A stretch of 64,000 nucleotides of DNA, from positions 656,948 to 720,947 of the forward strand of contig CAXXWJ010000002.1 of the NCBI GenBank assembly GCA_963665835.2, in the 5' to 3' direction. The notes under the pieces are model-generated. The model was not told the DNA's origin. It did no database searches and worked only from the letters and a program-made list of their open reading frames with translations. Position 1 is the first letter of the stretch. Each line of letters opens with the position of its first letter. The stretch is from Syntrophales bacterium. GTDB lineage: Bacteria > Desulfobacterota > Syntrophia > Syntrophales > UBA2210. Shown here in pieces: positions 7,152 through 37,582 of the stretch. A program made the translations under genes and the position numbers.

Positions 7152-8510
7152 TTACAGATTACCGGGCTCCCACCCTACTCCCATAGCCCTTTCAAGATTT
7201 GCCAGACCTATATGATAATCGCCTACAGCATTTGTGTAATCGCTTTTCGCCCTGGTGAGCAGGTTCTGAGCATCCAGGACATCCGTTGATCTCGCCACCT
7301 GTTCCATATACCTTTCATTGGTTATGCGAAAGTTCTCCTCCGCCTGCTCGATAGCCCTTTGAGACACCGCGATCTGCCTCTGCGACTCATTGAGAAGCAG
7401 ATAGGCATGCTTGACCTCAAGGGCGATCATGTCTTTCACATTTTCAAAGGCGTCAGCCACCTGATTTTCAAGTCCCTTTGTCTGATCCACCCGGCTCTTC
7501 GTCTTGCCCCATTCCCAGAAAGTCCAGTTTGCAACGGCCATGACCTGCCAGTTTTCCTTGTCCCTGAACTCGCTTCCTGCCACAGCCGGAGTATCGCCGA
7601 AACGGAAATAGTTGCCTACAAGGCTTACGTTGGGGAAAAATCCGCTCTCTGCCAGTTTGACAAACTCTCTGGCCTGTTCAACCTTCACAGAACAGGCCCT
7701 GATCTCGGGACGCTTCTCAAGAGCCGCCTTTTGACAATCCTCGGGAGACTTTCCGAAAGTCTCATAGTCGAAGACATCGTCCACCCTCACCGGCGCATCT
7801 ATCTCCCTTCTCAAAACAGTATTCAGTTTGGCACGTGCCATTTCAAGGCCGTTCTCGGATCGAATAAGAAATTGACGACCATTGGCAAGCTGTACCTCTG
7901 CCTGTAGAAGATCGTTCCGCGGGATTATACCCACATCGAAAAAACCCTGAGCGGCCTCACGGTGAGCTTCGAGCTGCTTAACAGACTGCCGGGCCACCTG
8001 CAGAAGCTTTTCTGCCTTTATCAAGTTGAAATAGGCTATCTTCACTTCCCTTACAATATCCAGTACCGTTCCCATCTCTTCCATCTGTGCAGCACTTACA
8101 CCTAACTTGCTGGCCTCGTAATTCGCAAGAATTCCCCCGCCGGCAAAGATCGTCTGCCGGGCCTCGATCGACCAGGCATAATTATTCTCCGTACCTGTAG
8201 TAACGACGGTCTTTGAGGCTGGGGTTGGAAAACCGGAGATGGTAGAAGACGGCGCCTCATTATACCTGACATAGTTGTAGGAGGTGCTCAACCTGGGCAG
8301 AAATCCGGAGATGGCCTCACTCTTTGAAGCCTCGGCAACGGCAACACCTTCCCTTGCCGAATGAATTATTACACTTTGTTTCAAAGCTATGTCTATACTA
8401 TCCTGCAGTGTGAGAACAGATTCGGCCTGCTCCGCCGATACCGGCGACGGCATCGAAAAAAAACTCAGCAGGAAGATAAAAATCGTGAGTAATGGGATCT
8501 TGACTTTCAT
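7152..8510 (-). CDS. tolC: TolC-family outer membrane efflux protein
   Basis: 452 aa with a signal peptide (…SPVSAEQ) and two internally repeated alpha/beta OEP halves. Position is at the head of the efflux operon. Confidence 0.85.
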   Translation of the reverse strand: MKVKIPLLTIFIFLLSFFSMPSPVSAEQAESVLTLQDSIDIALKQSVIIHSAREGVAVAEASKSEAISGFLPRLSTSYNYVRYNEAPSSTISGFPTPASKTVVTTGTENNYAWSIEARQTIFAGGGILANYEASKLGVSAAQMEEMGTVLDIVREVKIAYFNLIKAEKLLQVARQSVKQLEAHREAAQGFFDVGIIPRNDLLQAEVQLANGRQFLIRSENGLEMARAKLNTVLRREIDAPVRVDDVFDYETFGKSPEDCQKAALEKRPEIRACSVKVEQAREFVKLAESGFFPNVSLVGNYFRFGDTPAVAGSEFRDKENWQVMAVANWTFWEWGKTKSRVDQTKGLENQVADAFENVKDMIALEVKHAYLLLNESQRQIAVSQRAIEQAEENFRITNERYMEQVARSTDVLDAQNLLTRAKSDYTNAVGDYHIGLANLERAMGVGWEPGNL

Positions 8511-8536
8511 AGTTTTACCATTTCACCTTAATTGCT

Positions 8537-9196
8537 CTATTTTTTAAGGGCCCTCAAAACAATATCCTCGATCTCCAGGGCAAAATCCTCGGCCCTTATC
8601 TCGTTAATGCTGCTGATTTCCTCGGCAGATCTGCCCGCCCGCTCCCTGATCGGCGTGCTGGCCTGAAAAAACATAACAGAACCGATTACCATCATGTGGA
8701 GTATGAAGGGGGTTGTGGGCACGAAAAGGCCATTGCTGACACCTTCGTCAATAATGGATGTAACAGTCCCTATAATACTTACAAAGTCTTCAAGGATGAC
8801 GTAGGGAAGGTTTTGGCCGCCAGAGGCGAGCTCCCTCATCATGATCTGGGGCATCTGGGGATTGTTTCCAATTTCACGGACAACAGTGCGGACATATATC
8901 CTAATCTTTTCTTCAGGAGAATAGGCCTGCTGCACACCTGCTTTGATGGCATTGGCAATGCCTTTTATCGTCCTCTGGATAACCCTTGCATATAGAGTTT
9001 CCTTGTTCCCTATGTGATAGTAAATGGTGGCCTTGTTTACACCGGCCCTCCTGGCAATCTCGTCGACTCTTGTGCTGCCGAAGCCCAAGTCGGAAAATAC
9101 AGCCATTGCAGCATCAAGAATGCGGTCTATCGTTTCCCCGCTTTTTTCAGTGGACTGTTTTATCTCCATTATATAGCCACAAGACCTGAACAACAT
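8537..9196 (-). CDS. TetR/AcrR family transcriptional regulator (CecR/YbiH-like position)
   Basis: N-terminal HTH TRVDEIARRAGVNKATIYYHIGNKETLY. First gene of the efflux cluster. Alternative start MEIKQ at 9169. Confidence 0.85.
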   Translation of the reverse strand: MLFRSCGYIMEIKQSTEKSGETIDRILDAAMAVFSDLGFGSTRVDEIARRAGVNKATIYYHIGNKETLYARVIQRTIKGIANAIKAGVQQAYSPEEKIRIYVRTVVREIGNNPQMPQIMMRELASGGQNLPYVILEDFVSIIGTVTSIIDEGVSNGLFVPTTPFILHMMVIGSVMFFQASTPIRERAGRSAEEISSINEIRAEDFALEIEDIVLRALKK

Positions 9197-9201
9197 TTTT
9201 A

Positions 9202-9217
9202 AACTAACCGTTTAGTT
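9202..9217. promoter_or_regulatory. Perfect 6-4-6 palindrome AACTAAccgtTTAGTT, candidate TetR operator
   Basis: Read directly. Lies 6 nt (or 33 nt for the alternative start) upstream of the TetR gene start. Confidence 0.3.
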
Positions 9218-9380
9218 AAACCCCCCGGTTGAATATATCACCCCGCCCCCGCTGTCAAGGGGAGAAATTCCATATTTATAAATCCCGATGCAGATTCATA
9301 ACTCAAATCAAAATCCAACCGGCAGCGGCAGCTTGCACAGATAAAAAAAATAAAGTTTTTTGACGATCCTCTAAAACCCC

Positions 9381-9409
9381 TTGACTATCCTCATCTCAGA
9401 AGTTATTTT
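9381..9409 (+). promoter_or_regulatory. Candidate sigma-70 promoter TTGACT-17 nt-TATTTT
   Basis: Hexamers and 17-nt spacer read directly, ~118 nt upstream of the 9527 start. Confidence 0.3.
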
Positions 9410-9526
9410 TCCAGGTGTGATTTCAGGAAAGAATCATTTTTAGTGAATTCTGCAATGAATAAAGGAATCGGAAAGGTTTCCGCTTCAGATTTATTTTTAT
9501 AAACCTGCTTATAAGGAGTTTAAACT

Positions 9527-34025: not shown

Positions 34026-34661
34026 CTATTCCATAAAATTTATATTCACACGCTCCACATCCCATAATGTATGTATTTTTTCATTTATCTCGTCTCTTAT
34101 ATTGGTCGCAAACTGGTGGCCAGCAGGAAGATCTACCGTTATTTCAACGACACCCTTATCCAGCTTGATCTCCTTTACCAATTCGGTACGCACCAGATCG
34201 AGACCTGAAAGAGGATTCATAACCTTCTTCAGACGCTTACGAATAACCTCCACCGTGGTAGGCTCCCGATCTGTGATAATACCGTTACGTTCCTCGTAAT
34301 TCTTTATGGCCGAGCGCAGTCCCTCTACAGCCAATACAGAGCAGTGCGACTTTACCGGTGGAAGACCTCCAAGGGCATCCGACGCCTCCTTCCAGCTTAT
34401 CTGCTTGGCTTCTTCGATGGTTTTACCCTTGGCAAGTTCGGTAATGATGGACCCGGTGGCTATGTTCGACGCACAGCCGTAGGATTCGAATTTGATGTCC
34501 GCTATACGTTTAGTATCGGGATCAACATTAATCTGGACCGATACCATATCTCCGCAAGCGGGGCTACCCTCCATGGCGTTACCGTCCGGGTTTTCGAGTT
34601 TTCCAACATTACGGGGGTGCCGAAAGTGTTCCAGGACCTTGTCAGTGTATGGGAATGTCAT
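34026..34661 (-). CDS. iscU: IscU/NifU-type Fe-S scaffold fused to a C-terminal DUF59 (MIP18-like) domain
   Basis: N-terminal HFRHPRNVG...ACGD...YGCASNIA...SHCS carries the three scaffold Cys. The ~85 C-terminal residues (VIRKRLKKVMNPLSGLDLVRTELVKEIKL..VEITVDLP) resemble DUF59 but lack its usual Cys. Confidence 0.8.
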   Translation of the reverse strand: MTFPYTDKVLEHFRHPRNVGKLENPDGNAMEGSPACGDMVSVQINVDPDTKRIADIKFESYGCASNIATGSIITELAKGKTIEEAKQISWKEASDALGGLPPVKSHCSVLAVEGLRSAIKNYEERNGIITDREPTTVEVIRKRLKKVMNPLSGLDLVRTELVKEIKLDKGVVEITVDLPAGHQFATNIRDEINEKIHTLWDVERVNINFME

Positions 34662-34675
34662 AGTTGTGTCCCTCC

Positions 34676-35845
34676 TTATTTTGCGACCAATGGACTGATC
34701 TTTCTCAGTTCTCCTACCACCTCAGATACCGTAGCCACCAGAGCATCTACCTCTTCCATGGTGTTGTAACGGCCAAATGTAAAACGTATAGATCCGTGAG
34801 CCCGTTCATGATCTCCCCCGATACCCATAATGACATGGCTTGCCTCCAGAGAACGGCTGAAACAGGCAGAGCCTGTGCTGACGGCAAAGCCTCGCATATC
34901 CAGATGCAGGGTTATGGACTCTCCCTCAACGAAATGAAAGGTTATGTTAGCGTTCTGAGGGACCCTTTTAAAGCGGTGGCCATTGAGGGTTGTATCGGGT
35001 ACCTCGGTCATGATCCTTTCCATAAGGTGGTCTCGCATCCCCAGGATACGTTGATTTTCTTCGGTCGTAACCAGTTCAACGGCCTTGGAAAAACCAACTG
35101 CACCCGGGATATTCTCCAGACCACCCCTAAGATCAAACTCCTGAAACCCTCCGTCCATCCACTTGGCAACAGGCGTTCCGGCACGAACATATAAGCCACC
35201 AATCCCCTTCGGACCATGAATGGTGTGGGGAGATATGGTAACCAGGTCCACGTTAACCTTCGAGACGTCAAGAGGAACCCTTGTGAACGCATGGGTGGCA
35301 TCGGAATGGAAAAGGGTATCCTTCTCGCGACATATACTGCCTATGGCCGCTATATCCTGCATGGTGCCAATCTCCTGGTTTGCACTCTGGATCGACACCA
35401 GTATGGTCTTGTCGGTTATTGCATCTCTCACGCTTTCGGGATCAACAAGCCCTTCGGAGTCAACCCCCAGGTAGGTAACGGAAAAACCCTGTTTTTCAAG
35501 CGTCCTGGCACTGTGCAGAACAGAAAAGTCCTCAATCGCGGAGATAATTATGTGGCGACCCTTCTTGTCACCAAGGGCCATGGCAACCCCCTTCAGCGCC
35601 AGATTGCTCGACTCAGCGTTTCCCGAGGTGAAGATAATCTCTTCGCTGATGGACGTCCCCATATGGTCTGCAATCTTCCTCCGCGATTGCTCCAGGGCCT
35701 CACGGGCCTCTATGCCGAGGGAATAACCAAATTCAGATGTAGCAACAGGGTAAATCTCAAAAAAGTAGGGTCTCATAGACTCAAGAACCCTCTCGTCCAT
35801 ACGGGTTGCAGCAGCATTGTCAAGATAGATGGTCTTTGGATTCAT
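34676..35845 (-). CDS. IscS/NifS-like class V aminotransferase-fold protein lacking the PLP-binding lysine
   Basis: Colinear with IscS (TSGNAESSNLALKG, HSDATH, STGSACFS active-site Cys loop, IRFTFGRYNT). It has SPHTIHGPKG where IscS has SGHKIYGPKG (ACC Thr codon at 35222-35224) and IEDFSV where IscS has TEHKAV. Confidence 0.8.
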   Translation of the reverse strand: MNPKTIYLDNAAATRMDERVLESMRPYFFEIYPVATSEFGYSLGIEAREALEQSRRKIADHMGTSISEEIIFTSGNAESSNLALKGVAMALGDKKGRHIIISAIEDFSVLHSARTLEKQGFSVTYLGVDSEGLVDPESVRDAITDKTILVSIQSANQEIGTMQDIAAIGSICREKDTLFHSDATHAFTRVPLDVSKVNVDLVTISPHTIHGPKGIGGLYVRAGTPVAKWMDGGFQEFDLRGGLENIPGAVGFSKAVELVTTEENQRILGMRDHLMERIMTEVPDTTLNGHRFKRVPQNANITFHFVEGESITLHLDMRGFAVSTGSACFSRSLEASHVIMGIGGDHERAHGSIRFTFGRYNTMEEVDALVATVSEVVGELRKISPLVAK

Positions 35846-35858
35846 TTACGCCTTCTTT

Positions 35859-36278
35859 CTATATGAACAGGGTTATTTTCGATTCCCGGGCCTCTTGTAT
35901 GTAGGTGCCAACTGCACCGTAATCATCGATAAGATCCTGACGAAGGTCTTCCTTTCTGATCCCCATTATCTGCATTGTCATTTCGCAGGCTATAATCTTA
36001 CCCCCCAGTTCCTTGAAATCCTTAAGCAGCCTTTCCAGCGAAGCCACGTTTGCAGCCTTCATCCGCCGCCTCACCATCCACTTTCCAAGGCCAAGCATAT
36101 GCATTTTTGAAAGGGATCCACGTTCCAGCTTGCCCTTGATTAGGCGCTCAAGTCCCCAGAATGTGAAATACAGCGACGCCTCCATTCCCATGGCAAGAGC
36201 GCCATTTGATACGATAAGCGCACTGTAGAGTTTGTCCATATCCCCGCTGTGAACAACGATAGTTGACTTGTCAGCCAT
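35859..36278 (-). CDS. DsrE/DsrF-like sulfur relay family protein (DsrE3/COG2210-like)
   Basis: 139 aa; IVVHSGDMDKLYSALI...ACEMTM with conserved Cys, typical of the DsrE3-type proteins found next to TusA. Confidence 0.7.
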   Translation of the reverse strand: MADKSTIVVHSGDMDKLYSALIVSNGALAMGMEASLYFTFWGLERLIKGKLERGSLSKMHMLGLGKWMVRRRMKAANVASLERLLKDFKELGGKIIACEMTMQIMGIRKEDLRQDLIDDYGAVGTYIQEARESKITLFI

Positions 36279-36296
36279 TATGGCACCCCTTTTCCT

Positions 36297-36518
36297 TCAG
36301 ATAGTTACCTTGATGGTCCACTGATCGTCATCTCCCGCTACCTCTACGCCCTGTAGCCCCAAGGCCTTGAAGGCCATTGGGATCTCCTTCTTTGAGGCAG
36401 GGTGCGTCCCTATAATCTCCAGTGTATCTCCCTGTGCCGCCTTCCGCAGGGCCTTTCGAGCCTCAACAAGCGGTACAGGACAGGTTTCACCCCTGACGTC
36501 CACTCTTATATCAGCCAT
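36297..36518 (-). CDS. tusA: TusA/SirA-family sulfurtransferase
   Basis: 73 aa; DVRGETCPVPLVEARKAL has the CPxP motif. Confidence 0.85.
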   Translation of the reverse strand: MADIRVDVRGETCPVPLVEARKALRKAAQGDTLEIIGTHPASKKEIPMAFKALGLQGVEVAGDDDQWTIKVTI

Positions 36519-36611
36519 AATGTAAACCTCCCCGACTGTTTATGATTCAAGATAAAACCGCAAACAACCGACCACGCTGCACAGCACGGGAAATAAGACT
36601 TTGAAGCTCCG

Positions 36612-36908
36612 TCAATCCTTCAAGTCCTTTTTCATCTCCTCAAATTTTTCCTTGCTGATCTCGCCCCTGGCGTATCTCCTTTTAAGAAGCTCCATGGGGG
36701 AATCATATGACGAGCCCAGGCCCCTCTCTTTTGAGGCCCGTACGAGAAAATAAACGACTAATGCAACCGCGATCAAAAGCAGTATAAGCATAAAAACTCC
36801 CCCCAATCCTGGCCCCATAGGTCCCCACCCGTACAAACACTCCCTGTCTGCCCAGGCGCAGGTGGCAAAAAACATGCTTATTCCCAGACAAAAAATATAA
36901 CTATTCAT
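36612..36908 (-). CDS. SHOCT-domain membrane protein
   Basis: Start placed at MNSYIF (ATG 36908). One signal/TM segment plus one TM helix, and a C-terminal ELLKRRYARGEISKEKFEEMKKDL SHOCT motif. Confidence 0.6.
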   Translation of the reverse strand: MNSYIFCLGISMFFATCAWADRECLYGWGPMGPGLGGVFMLILLLIAVALVVYFLVRASKERGLGSSYDSPMELLKRRYARGEISKEKFEEMKKDLKD

Positions 36909-36940
36909 GGAAAAATCCCCCCGTTCAACCTTCCCCTCTT

Positions 36941-37552
36941 TTAACGCGTAAGTTTTGCAGCTATGGTGGCAACATGACGTCCCTGAAAGCGTGCACCGGC
37001 CAACTCGTTTTCCGTTGGCATCCTTTCTCCACCACCGCCGGCTATTGTCGAAGCACCGTAAGGAGAACAACCTGTCAATTCATCAGATCTCGACTGACCG
37101 TCAAAACTGTAAGGCAACCCTACAACGATCATGCCGTGATGCAGAAGGGTAACATGGAATGTCAGTATGGTGGATTCCTGACCTCCATGCTGTGTCCCTG
37201 TGCTTGTAAAAACACTCCCTACTTTTCCTACAAGGGCTCGCTTGGCCCATAGACCTCCGGTCGCATCGAGAAACTGCCGCATCTGTCCGCACATGTTTCC
37301 GAATCTAGTCGGTGTCCCAAATATTATTGCGTCGGCCTCAGCAAGTTCTTCGATCCGGCACAGAGGAACAGGGGCGAAGGTCTTCTGAATCTCCCTGGCC
37401 CCCATCCTGGCGAGCACATCCTCGGACAGGGTCTCCGGGACCCTCCGCAAAACTGCCTCGGCCCCTTCAACCTCCTTCACGCCTTCGGCCACCTCATTGG
37501 CCAAGCGATGAACATGACCATACATTGAATAATACAATATCAAAGCGTTCAT
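36941..37552 (-). CDS. wrbA: NAD(P)H:quinone oxidoreductase, WrbA type (flavodoxin-like)
   Basis: [18 protein letters not shown]...[11 protein letters not shown]...[12 protein letters not shown], characteristic of WrbA. Confidence 0.9.
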
Positions 37553-37582
37553 GGGATAACCTCCTGTTGTGAAACATCTCGG

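Follow-up and report, generated by a model that had tools for sequence, protein, structure and literature searches.

A TusA-DsrE-IscS-IscU operon with a lysine-less IscS homologue from a Syntrophales bacterium, and its occurrence among anaerobic bacteria and archaea

How sulfur enters the iron-sulfur (Fe-S) clusters of strict anaerobes, and what role the inactive IscS of Archaeoglobus plays, are open questions. Archaeoglobus fulgidus IscS2 is lysine-less and inactive, binds IscU and ligates a [2Fe-2S] cluster through its loop cysteine (PMC7585200), and IscS2-IscU structures are available as PDB 4EB5, 4EB7, 4HVK and 4R5F. Here we analyze a window of 64,000 nucleotides from a Syntrophales bacterium (assembly GCA_963665835.2, contig CAXXWJ010000002.1, positions 656,948 to 720,947), which carries on its minus strand a self-contained operon of four genes, tusA - dsrE2B-like - iscS* - iscU::DUF59. 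The product of iscS* (IscS*) is an IscS/NifS homologue devoid of the lysine that in Escherichia coli IscS forms the Schiff base with pyridoxal 5'-phosphate (PLP). This cassette is common, almost unchanged, to many oxygen-avoiding bacteria and archaea, and its constant pairing of TusA/DsrE with a lysine-less IscS, absent beside working desulfurases, makes both questions testable. The initial annotation of the locus had named a PLP-free IscS from A. fulgidus as a precedent, and that precedent is real (PDB 4EB5/4R5F; PMC7585200).

Sulfur carriers of the two families encoded upstream of iscS* are known from other relays. In E. coli a persulfide is passed from IscS to TusA and on to TusBCD (PDB 3LVJ; PMC2854127), and sulfur exchange between TusA and DsrE is an established feature of the Dsr and sHdr systems of sulfur oxidizers (PMC11094781). 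The minimal ISC system (MIS, MisS-MisU) is an IscS-IscU pair found in anaerobes alongside the SufBC-type SMS (PMC13066941). The nearest described locus is the isc1 cluster of Methanosarcina acetivorans, composed of MA0810 (SirA-like), MA0809 (DrsE superfamily), MA0808 (IscS1) and MA0807 (IscU1, 24.2 kDa), which was drawn once, in a supplementary figure, with neighbors "of unknown function" and with isc1 itself left unstudied (PMC7585200). That paper was the only one found for the cassette or for the tags MA0807-MA0810, and our literature search, whose reach did not extend to the MIS-defining paper, found none linking TusA/DsrE carriers to a lysine-less IscS.

The Syntrophales cassette is an orthologue of isc1 and a variant of the MIS pair. 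It shares with isc1 the same four genes, an IscS without the PLP residues and the identical loop STGSACFS, and IscU1 has the size of a DUF59 fusion; a Methanosarcinaceae locus in our sample (L063) carries the cassette with 68% IscS identity to the protein of the window. It differs from isc1 in its Syntrophales-type bacterial host, whose genome has no other IscS-IscU pair. The absence of HscAB, IscA, ferredoxin and IscR is a likeness to MIS, which as described includes a functional desulfurase and lacks accessory carriers, whereas in the cassette the homologue is predicted to be PLP-free and is always joined by TusA and DsrE as set members. As in A. fulgidus, a lysine-less IscS adjoins an IscU that has three Cys and one Asp, with HscAB, IscA and Fdx all absent, and there too the IscS2 gene follows a DsrE-family gene and a paralogue follows tusA-dsrE. 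IscS2 (match E 3.4e-95) nevertheless lies outside the IscS* clade in free trees, has its lysine replaced by Asp with His104 and Asn155 kept, is preceded by a DsrE partner of the short PF02635 type and pairs with an IscU devoid of DUF59. Entry 4R5F we take to be a D199K variant of this protein. The E. coli IscS-TusA-TusBCD relay involves the same three families, and the residues of the central IscS-TusA salt bridges are conserved in the cassette; however, the IscS of E. coli is an active desulfurase that donates the sulfur, whereas IscS* is very unlikely to be the source, and a single DsrE2B-like protein stands in place of the TusBCD hetero-hexamer, with TusE not found in this genome. The TusA-DsrE relays of sulfur oxidizers feed sulfur oxidation, whereas no Dsr or sHdr genes are linked to the cassette.

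The IscS homologue, its carriers and its scaffold

IscS* has full-length homology to the class-V aminotransferase fold (PF00266, residues 6-369, E 6.5e-67) and is colinear with E. coli IscS, with 42% identity over residues 5-386 (BLASTP). The substitutions read in the initial annotation stood up to alignment and to inspection of the codons: Thr208 (SPHTIHGPKG, codon ACC) lies opposite the Schiff-base Lys206 and Asp106 (AIEDFSV, codon GAC) opposite the PLP-stacking His104, with the mobile active-site loop STGSAC and its Cys328 kept, as is Arg354. Gln183 and Thr243 are further changed to His and Leu. The protein scored under every NCBIfam desulfurase cut-off, with 433.2 against 530.75 bits for NifS and 374 against 643.2 for IscS.

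The PLP contacts of E. coli IscS we take to be His104, Asn155, Asp180, Gln183, Ser203, His205 and Thr243. Of 201 IscS* clade members, numbered by E. coli IscS positions, 197 have Thr where the lysine would be and none has Lys. All 201 carry Asp instead of His104 and Gln instead of Asn155, 200 carry His instead of Gln183, and position 243 is hydrophobic (Leu/Ile). Five residues near-invariant in normal enzymes are each swapped for another fixed residue, while Asp180, Cys328 and Arg354 never vary, Ser203 and His205 persist and Thr76 does so in most members. In total, 22 positions are fixed in the clade yet reach at most 5% in lysine-bearing representatives, among them Asn35 (to Val) and the new bulky aromatics Phe107, Trp229, Phe234 and Phe329; Lys228 is a clade-specific lysine. 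These patterns suggest a pocket that has been remodelled, probably filled, and kept under selection rather than decaying. Because it has lost four PLP contacts in addition to the Schiff-base lysine, IscS* is very unlikely, judging by its sequence, to cleave sulfur from cysteine.

Protein searches returned thousands of relatives, the best 120 being 72-81% identical. When the library was clustered at 50% identity, the entire IscS* clade was reduced to a single representative, the next score falling from 582 to 440 bits. The lysine is absent from about 24 of 145 representative relatives, belonging to several lineages, and all lysine-less representatives examined kept the loop cysteine. The best solved sequence matches (PDB 9WEP, 9WER, 9WEW, 9WF8, 9WFB, 9WFE and 9WFY) are point variants of one 406-residue cysteine desulfurase, all lysine-bearing.

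TusA was recognized by PF01206 (70 bits, cut-off 28.6) and, with a score of 33.6, falls short of the cut-off of 78 set for the E. coli TusA equivalog. Its active Cys13, in a CPVP motif, is invariant in 78 cassette copies, among which Arg21 and Arg25, equivalent to Arg27 and Arg31 of E. coli TusA, are also conserved. The DsrE-family protein (PF13686, 117.5 bits), encoded by the sole PF13686 gene of the genome, has a single conserved cysteine, Cys98 in the motif ACEMTM, invariant in 76 copies. It had initially been labelled DsrE3-type, but its closest solved relative is DsrE2B of Saccharolobus solfataricus (PDB 2QS7, E 5e-19, cysteine aligned), against E 0.26 for the DsrE3A structure 3MC3, and we therefore call it DsrE2B-like; its score for the NCBIfam DsrE2 equivalog NF047629 was 63.8 bits, below the cut-off of 210. 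The notion that the two carriers are a split YedF was discarded, since the DsrE-like protein had no similarity to the C-terminal part of the long YedF of this genome.

The scaffold fusion combines IscU (PF01592, 146.6 bits) with DUF59 (PF01883, 52.6 bits) and is 44% identical to E. coli IscU. By alignment it retains all the predicted cluster ligands: Cys36, Asp38, Cys63, His106 and Cys107, invariant in 78 copies, match Cys37, Asp39, Cys63, His105 and Cys106 of E. coli IscU. The LPPVK motif is present in this copy.

Distribution of the cassette and control loci

Gene-order conservation was assessed in 80 genome loci retrieved by searching with the IscS-like protein, and in 75 of these all four genes lie side by side. 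The bacterial hosts include Syntrophales, Dehalococcoidia, Anaerolineae, Thermodesulfovibrionales, Atribacterota, Aminicenantes and others, and the archaeal hosts are Methanosarcinales, Methanomassiliicoccales and Methanofastidiosum. The genes of Anaerolineae are arranged iscS*-iscU-tusA-dsrE, with TusA and DsrE still adjacent; the two pairs thus move as pairs. Pairwise identities of IscS*, TusA and DsrE correlate (r 0.76-0.82), which fits transfer of the cassette as one unit. The four genes are inherited and transferred together, as a mobile cassette, and no further neighboring gene recurs in more than 11 of the 80 loci. Since the same substitutions and the same gene set recur in hundreds of relatives, the observation is far beyond chance.

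Lysine-bearing homologues served as controls. The IscS* clade occurs in 7 of 151 genomes sampled from the order of the window's own host, including all four of its genus; TusA/DsrE lies within 4 kb in 6/6 of these clade loci examined and in 0/20 lysine-bearing IscS/NifS loci of the same order. A second set of 40 Halobacteriota loci, ranked by likeness to the Archaeoglobus-type protein, had a TusA and/or DsrE-family gene directly alongside in 22 of 23 loci with the lysine changed to Asp and in none of 17 lysine-bearing ones. Both controls together give 0/37 lysine-bearing loci with TusA or DsrE alongside, all 37 carrying Lys. These counts are given without a p-value because the relatives are not independent.

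The Halobacteriota set includes the A. fulgidus IscS2 gene itself (L143:3704-5146, genome G326), whose product is identical to PDB 4EB5 at 381 of 382 positions; a 94-residue DsrE-family open reading frame (PF02635, E 2e-15) ends 10 nt upstream of it, with membrane-protein reading frames further upstream. A paralogous A. fulgidus-type locus (L152) is complete for tusA-dsrE-iscS-iscU and holds a further DrsE_2 gene.

Trees were built with FastTree and, for 46 rows, with IQ-TREE. Unconstrained, they place the Thr and Asp lysine-less clades apart (96% by the SH-like approximate likelihood ratio test, SH-aLRT, in the 46-row IQ-TREE). Independent loss of the lysine in the two was considered, but convergence is not claimed because the approximately unbiased (AU) test does not reject a single clade of both forms (p 0.285).

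Some loci bear insertions between iscS* and iscU::DUF59. Two Anaerolineae have a ferritin gene there (PF00210; L026:6206-6688, E 1e-43; L078:4218-4709, E 1e-45), which fits an iron-sulfur role of the cassette. Look-alike reading frames in the ferritin position were noted, without a Pfam scan, in the Anaerolineae loci L058 and L059, and the L058 gap also holds a gene for a 23S rRNA-intervening-sequence protein. Several Dehalococcoidia have one or two Asp/Glu/hydantoin-racemase-family genes (PF01177) at the same place (L047:2216-3627 and L068:6213-7626, also L034, L048, L050, L052 and L072). In three Dehalococcoidia (L024, L046 and L055, at about 7700-9470) the cassette is followed, after about 1 kb, by a normal lysine-bearing IscS-IscU pair encoded on the other strand, so that the two kinds of pair occur next to each other.

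A candidate sulfur relay and its alternatives

We consider it plausible, at a probability of roughly one half, that the cassette is a sulfur relay running from TusA/DsrE via IscS* to IscU. Sulfane sulfur would be carried on TusA Cys13 and Cys98 of the DsrE2B-like protein, and TusA would dock on helix alpha-2 of the IscS* dimer, in the manner of E. coli TusA on IscS. The IscS* loop cysteine would pass the sulfur to IscU and also serve as the fourth ligand of the nascent [2Fe-2S] cluster, as in A. fulgidus IscS-IscU, and the DUF59 domain may assist in handing the cluster on. This reading appears the likeliest in the light of the precedents from E. coli IscS-TusA, from TusA-DsrE of sulfur oxidizers and from IscS-IscU of A. 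fulgidus. The initial annotation had drawn a similar relay from the linkage of the genes. That linkage proved to be conserved, as did the lysine-less IscS with its Cys loop, whereas the flow from TusA/DsrE through IscS to IscU, including its direction, its sulfur source and its electron source, is what we infer by analogy.

Were it correct, the relay would be a widespread non-cysteine route into Fe-S assembly in methanogens, dehalogenating Chloroflexi and syntrophs. It also offers a testable idea of how "dead" desulfurase look-alikes get sulfur, namely from carriers joined in one operon with the Fe-S scaffold, and M. acetivorans, the host of isc1, is genetically tractable.

Docking of TusA was approached through the E. 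coli IscS-TusA contact residues, taken from the structure paper (PMC2854127). Within the clade, Glu occupies contact position 49 in 96% of members and Ile position 45 in 97%, two sites at which lysine-bearing representatives vary and mostly have polar residues. A predicted fold of the IscS* dimer with TusA scored 0.54 against 0.00 for the best control, with run contact agreement of at least 91% and partner predicted local distance difference test (pLDDT) values of at least 84. The mark passed by this fold is one that 58 of 80 solved complexes and 2 of 110 mismatches also attained; only 7 of those 80 complexes, and both mismatches, did so with a score of 0.60 or under.

Several points weigh against the relay. 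The fold lends weak support to docking, and its pass may be a memory of the solved E. coli complex. The sulfur of Fe-S clusters is sulfide, and the host organisms live amid free sulfide. The operon encodes neither a reductase nor a ferredoxin, while a persulfide relay would need two electrons per sulfur. A SufBC-type minimal system is present in the genome and could make housekeeping clusters from sulfide. Normal class-V desulfurases occur in 4 of 5 other cassette genomes checked, so that the cassette is not simply a substitute for them. The association of TusA/DsrE with lysine loss may stem from one ancient event. Finally, M. acetivorans IscS1 formed inclusion bodies (PMC7585200).

Alternatively, IscS* may be only a structural partner of IscU, which it would stabilize and provide with the fourth cluster ligand, with the sulfur coming directly from free sulfide and TusA/DsrE acting as accessories, in persulfide buffering or removal, repair or regulation, rather than as donors. 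This is the published reading for A. fulgidus IscS-IscU, it agrees with an operon devoid of a reductase and with a presumably sulfidic habitat, and minimal systems can use sulfide (PMC13066941). It leaves unexplained, however, why TusA/DsrE accompany the lysine-less loci (75/80 and 22/23) and not the lysine-bearing ones (0/37), as well as the fixed TusA-contact positions 45 and 49, and we regard it as possible but unlikely.

Sulfur might instead leave the operon through TusA and DsrE, the cassette being a hub for thiolated tRNA or cofactors, rather than for Fe-S proteins, in which IscS* and IscU would supply it or activate it, for instance from a sacrificial cluster. The gene set does resemble the opening part of the Tus relay in E. 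coli, and the genome has MnmA and lacks a normal IscS. Yet TusE/DsrC was not found in this genome, and the cassette has no conserved neighbor that encodes a thiolation enzyme. Both the fusion to DUF59 and the inserted ferritin genes suggest a link to Fe-S and iron, and a dead desulfurase would need a sulfur source anyway. We regard such a hub as quite improbable.

Two further readings concern the altered pocket. Retention of Asp180, Ser203, His205, Arg354 and mostly Thr76, and the invariance of the replacing residues, which suggests a pocket under selection, would suit an IscS* that is still an enzyme, with non-covalent PLP or another ligand, freeing sulfur or selenium from some substrate that is not free cysteine. 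Against this, the lysine, the stacking histidine and three more contacts are lost at once, the new bulky aromatics may merely fill the cavity, the A. fulgidus protein is inactive, and we know of no fold-type I PLP enzyme working without its lysine; residual activity of this kind thus seems highly improbable. We give a similarly remote chance, lower if anything, to the former PLP pocket being a new selected ligand site through which IscS*, besides shuttling sulfur, would deliver iron, or iron and sulfur, to IscU; candidate ligands there for a metal ion or sulfide would be two new residues, Asp106 and His185, and three kept ones, Asp182, His207 and the loop Cys328. That the gene encodes a decaying pseudo-enzyme without a function of its own, as loss of the catalytic lysine might suggest, can be practically dismissed: this is contradicted by the conservation data, with identities of 66-81% in bacteria and archaea alike and with branches that are shorter than in normal relatives, as well as by an intact reading frame with its own ribosome-binding site and by detection of M. 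acetivorans IscS1 in proteomes (Table 1 of PMC7585200).

Operon boundaries and host genome

The four minus-strand genes lie where the initial annotation had placed them, and Pfam supplied their families (Table 1). The gaps between them, previously given as 14-19 nt, measure 18, 13 and 14 nt. A Shine-Dalgarno-like sequence precedes each gene, with GGGGAGG ahead of tusA, and the terminator-like hairpin upstream is the probable 5' limit of the operon. The consensus scan found no sigma-70-like promoter on the minus strand upstream of tusA, and no Rfam element, including riboswitches, was found in or upstream of the operon.

Table 1 Features of the operon and its upstream flank, in window coordinates.
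Feature	Coordinates	Strand	Description
Upstream neighbors	36612-37552		SHOCT-type small membrane protein and WrbA-like flavodoxin (PF03358)
Terminator-like hairpin	36572..36589	minus	between upstream SHOCT-type gene and tusA; consensus scan only
tusA	36297..36518	minus	73-aa TusA/SirA-type sulfur carrier; PF01206
TusA Cys13 codon	36480-36482	minus	CPVP motif
dsrE2B-like gene	35859..36278	minus	139-aa DsrE-family protein; PF13686
DsrE2B-like Cys98 codon	35985-35987	minus	ACEMTM motif
iscS*	34676..35845	minus	389-aa IscS/NifS homologue without PLP lysine; PF00266
IscS* Asp106 codon	35528-35530	minus	GAC; opposite E. coli His104
IscS* Thr208 codon	35222-35224	minus	ACC; opposite E. coli Lys206
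IscS* Cys328 codon	34862-34864	minus	loop STGSAC
iscU::DUF59	34026..34661	minus	211-aa scaffold fusion; PF01592 + PF01883
IscU domain	~34284-34649	minus	PF01592
DUF59 (FeS_assembly_P) domain	~34044-34247	minus	PF01883

Because its flanks align with those of same-genus genomes, the cassette is resident rather than a recent insertion. The DNA match to one same-genus locus (L116) extends to window position 37565, spanning the upstream neighbors.

A genome search found no other IscS/NifS/SufS-type enzyme. The proposal of a cysteine-independent module is qualified by the only other strong class-V enzyme of the genome, a lysine-bearing one of TIGR01977/SclA type (L001:1489-3463, C1:1393917-1395891), which from its sequence would be the only PLP-competent desulfurase-like enzyme there. 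Its gene is followed by the long YedF (TIGR03527) and a 77-residue reading frame without an NCBIfam match, a trio that probably serves selenium handling. Elsewhere, a SelD-like protein of the AIR-synthase family, a YedE/YeeE-type PF04143 membrane protein and a third TusA-domain gene stand in a row (L121:1721-4233, C1:291520-294032), likely for selenium or thiosulfate uptake.

There is one SufB-type gene, with an adjacent probable SufC gene assigned from its position without a family scan. Rhodanese domains are present in addition to MnmA. The genome also encodes an MrpORP-type Fe-S carrier ATPase (NF041136, 546 bits; L012:170-1863, C1:231934-233627), directly followed by a second NifU/IscU-like gene of 142 codons.

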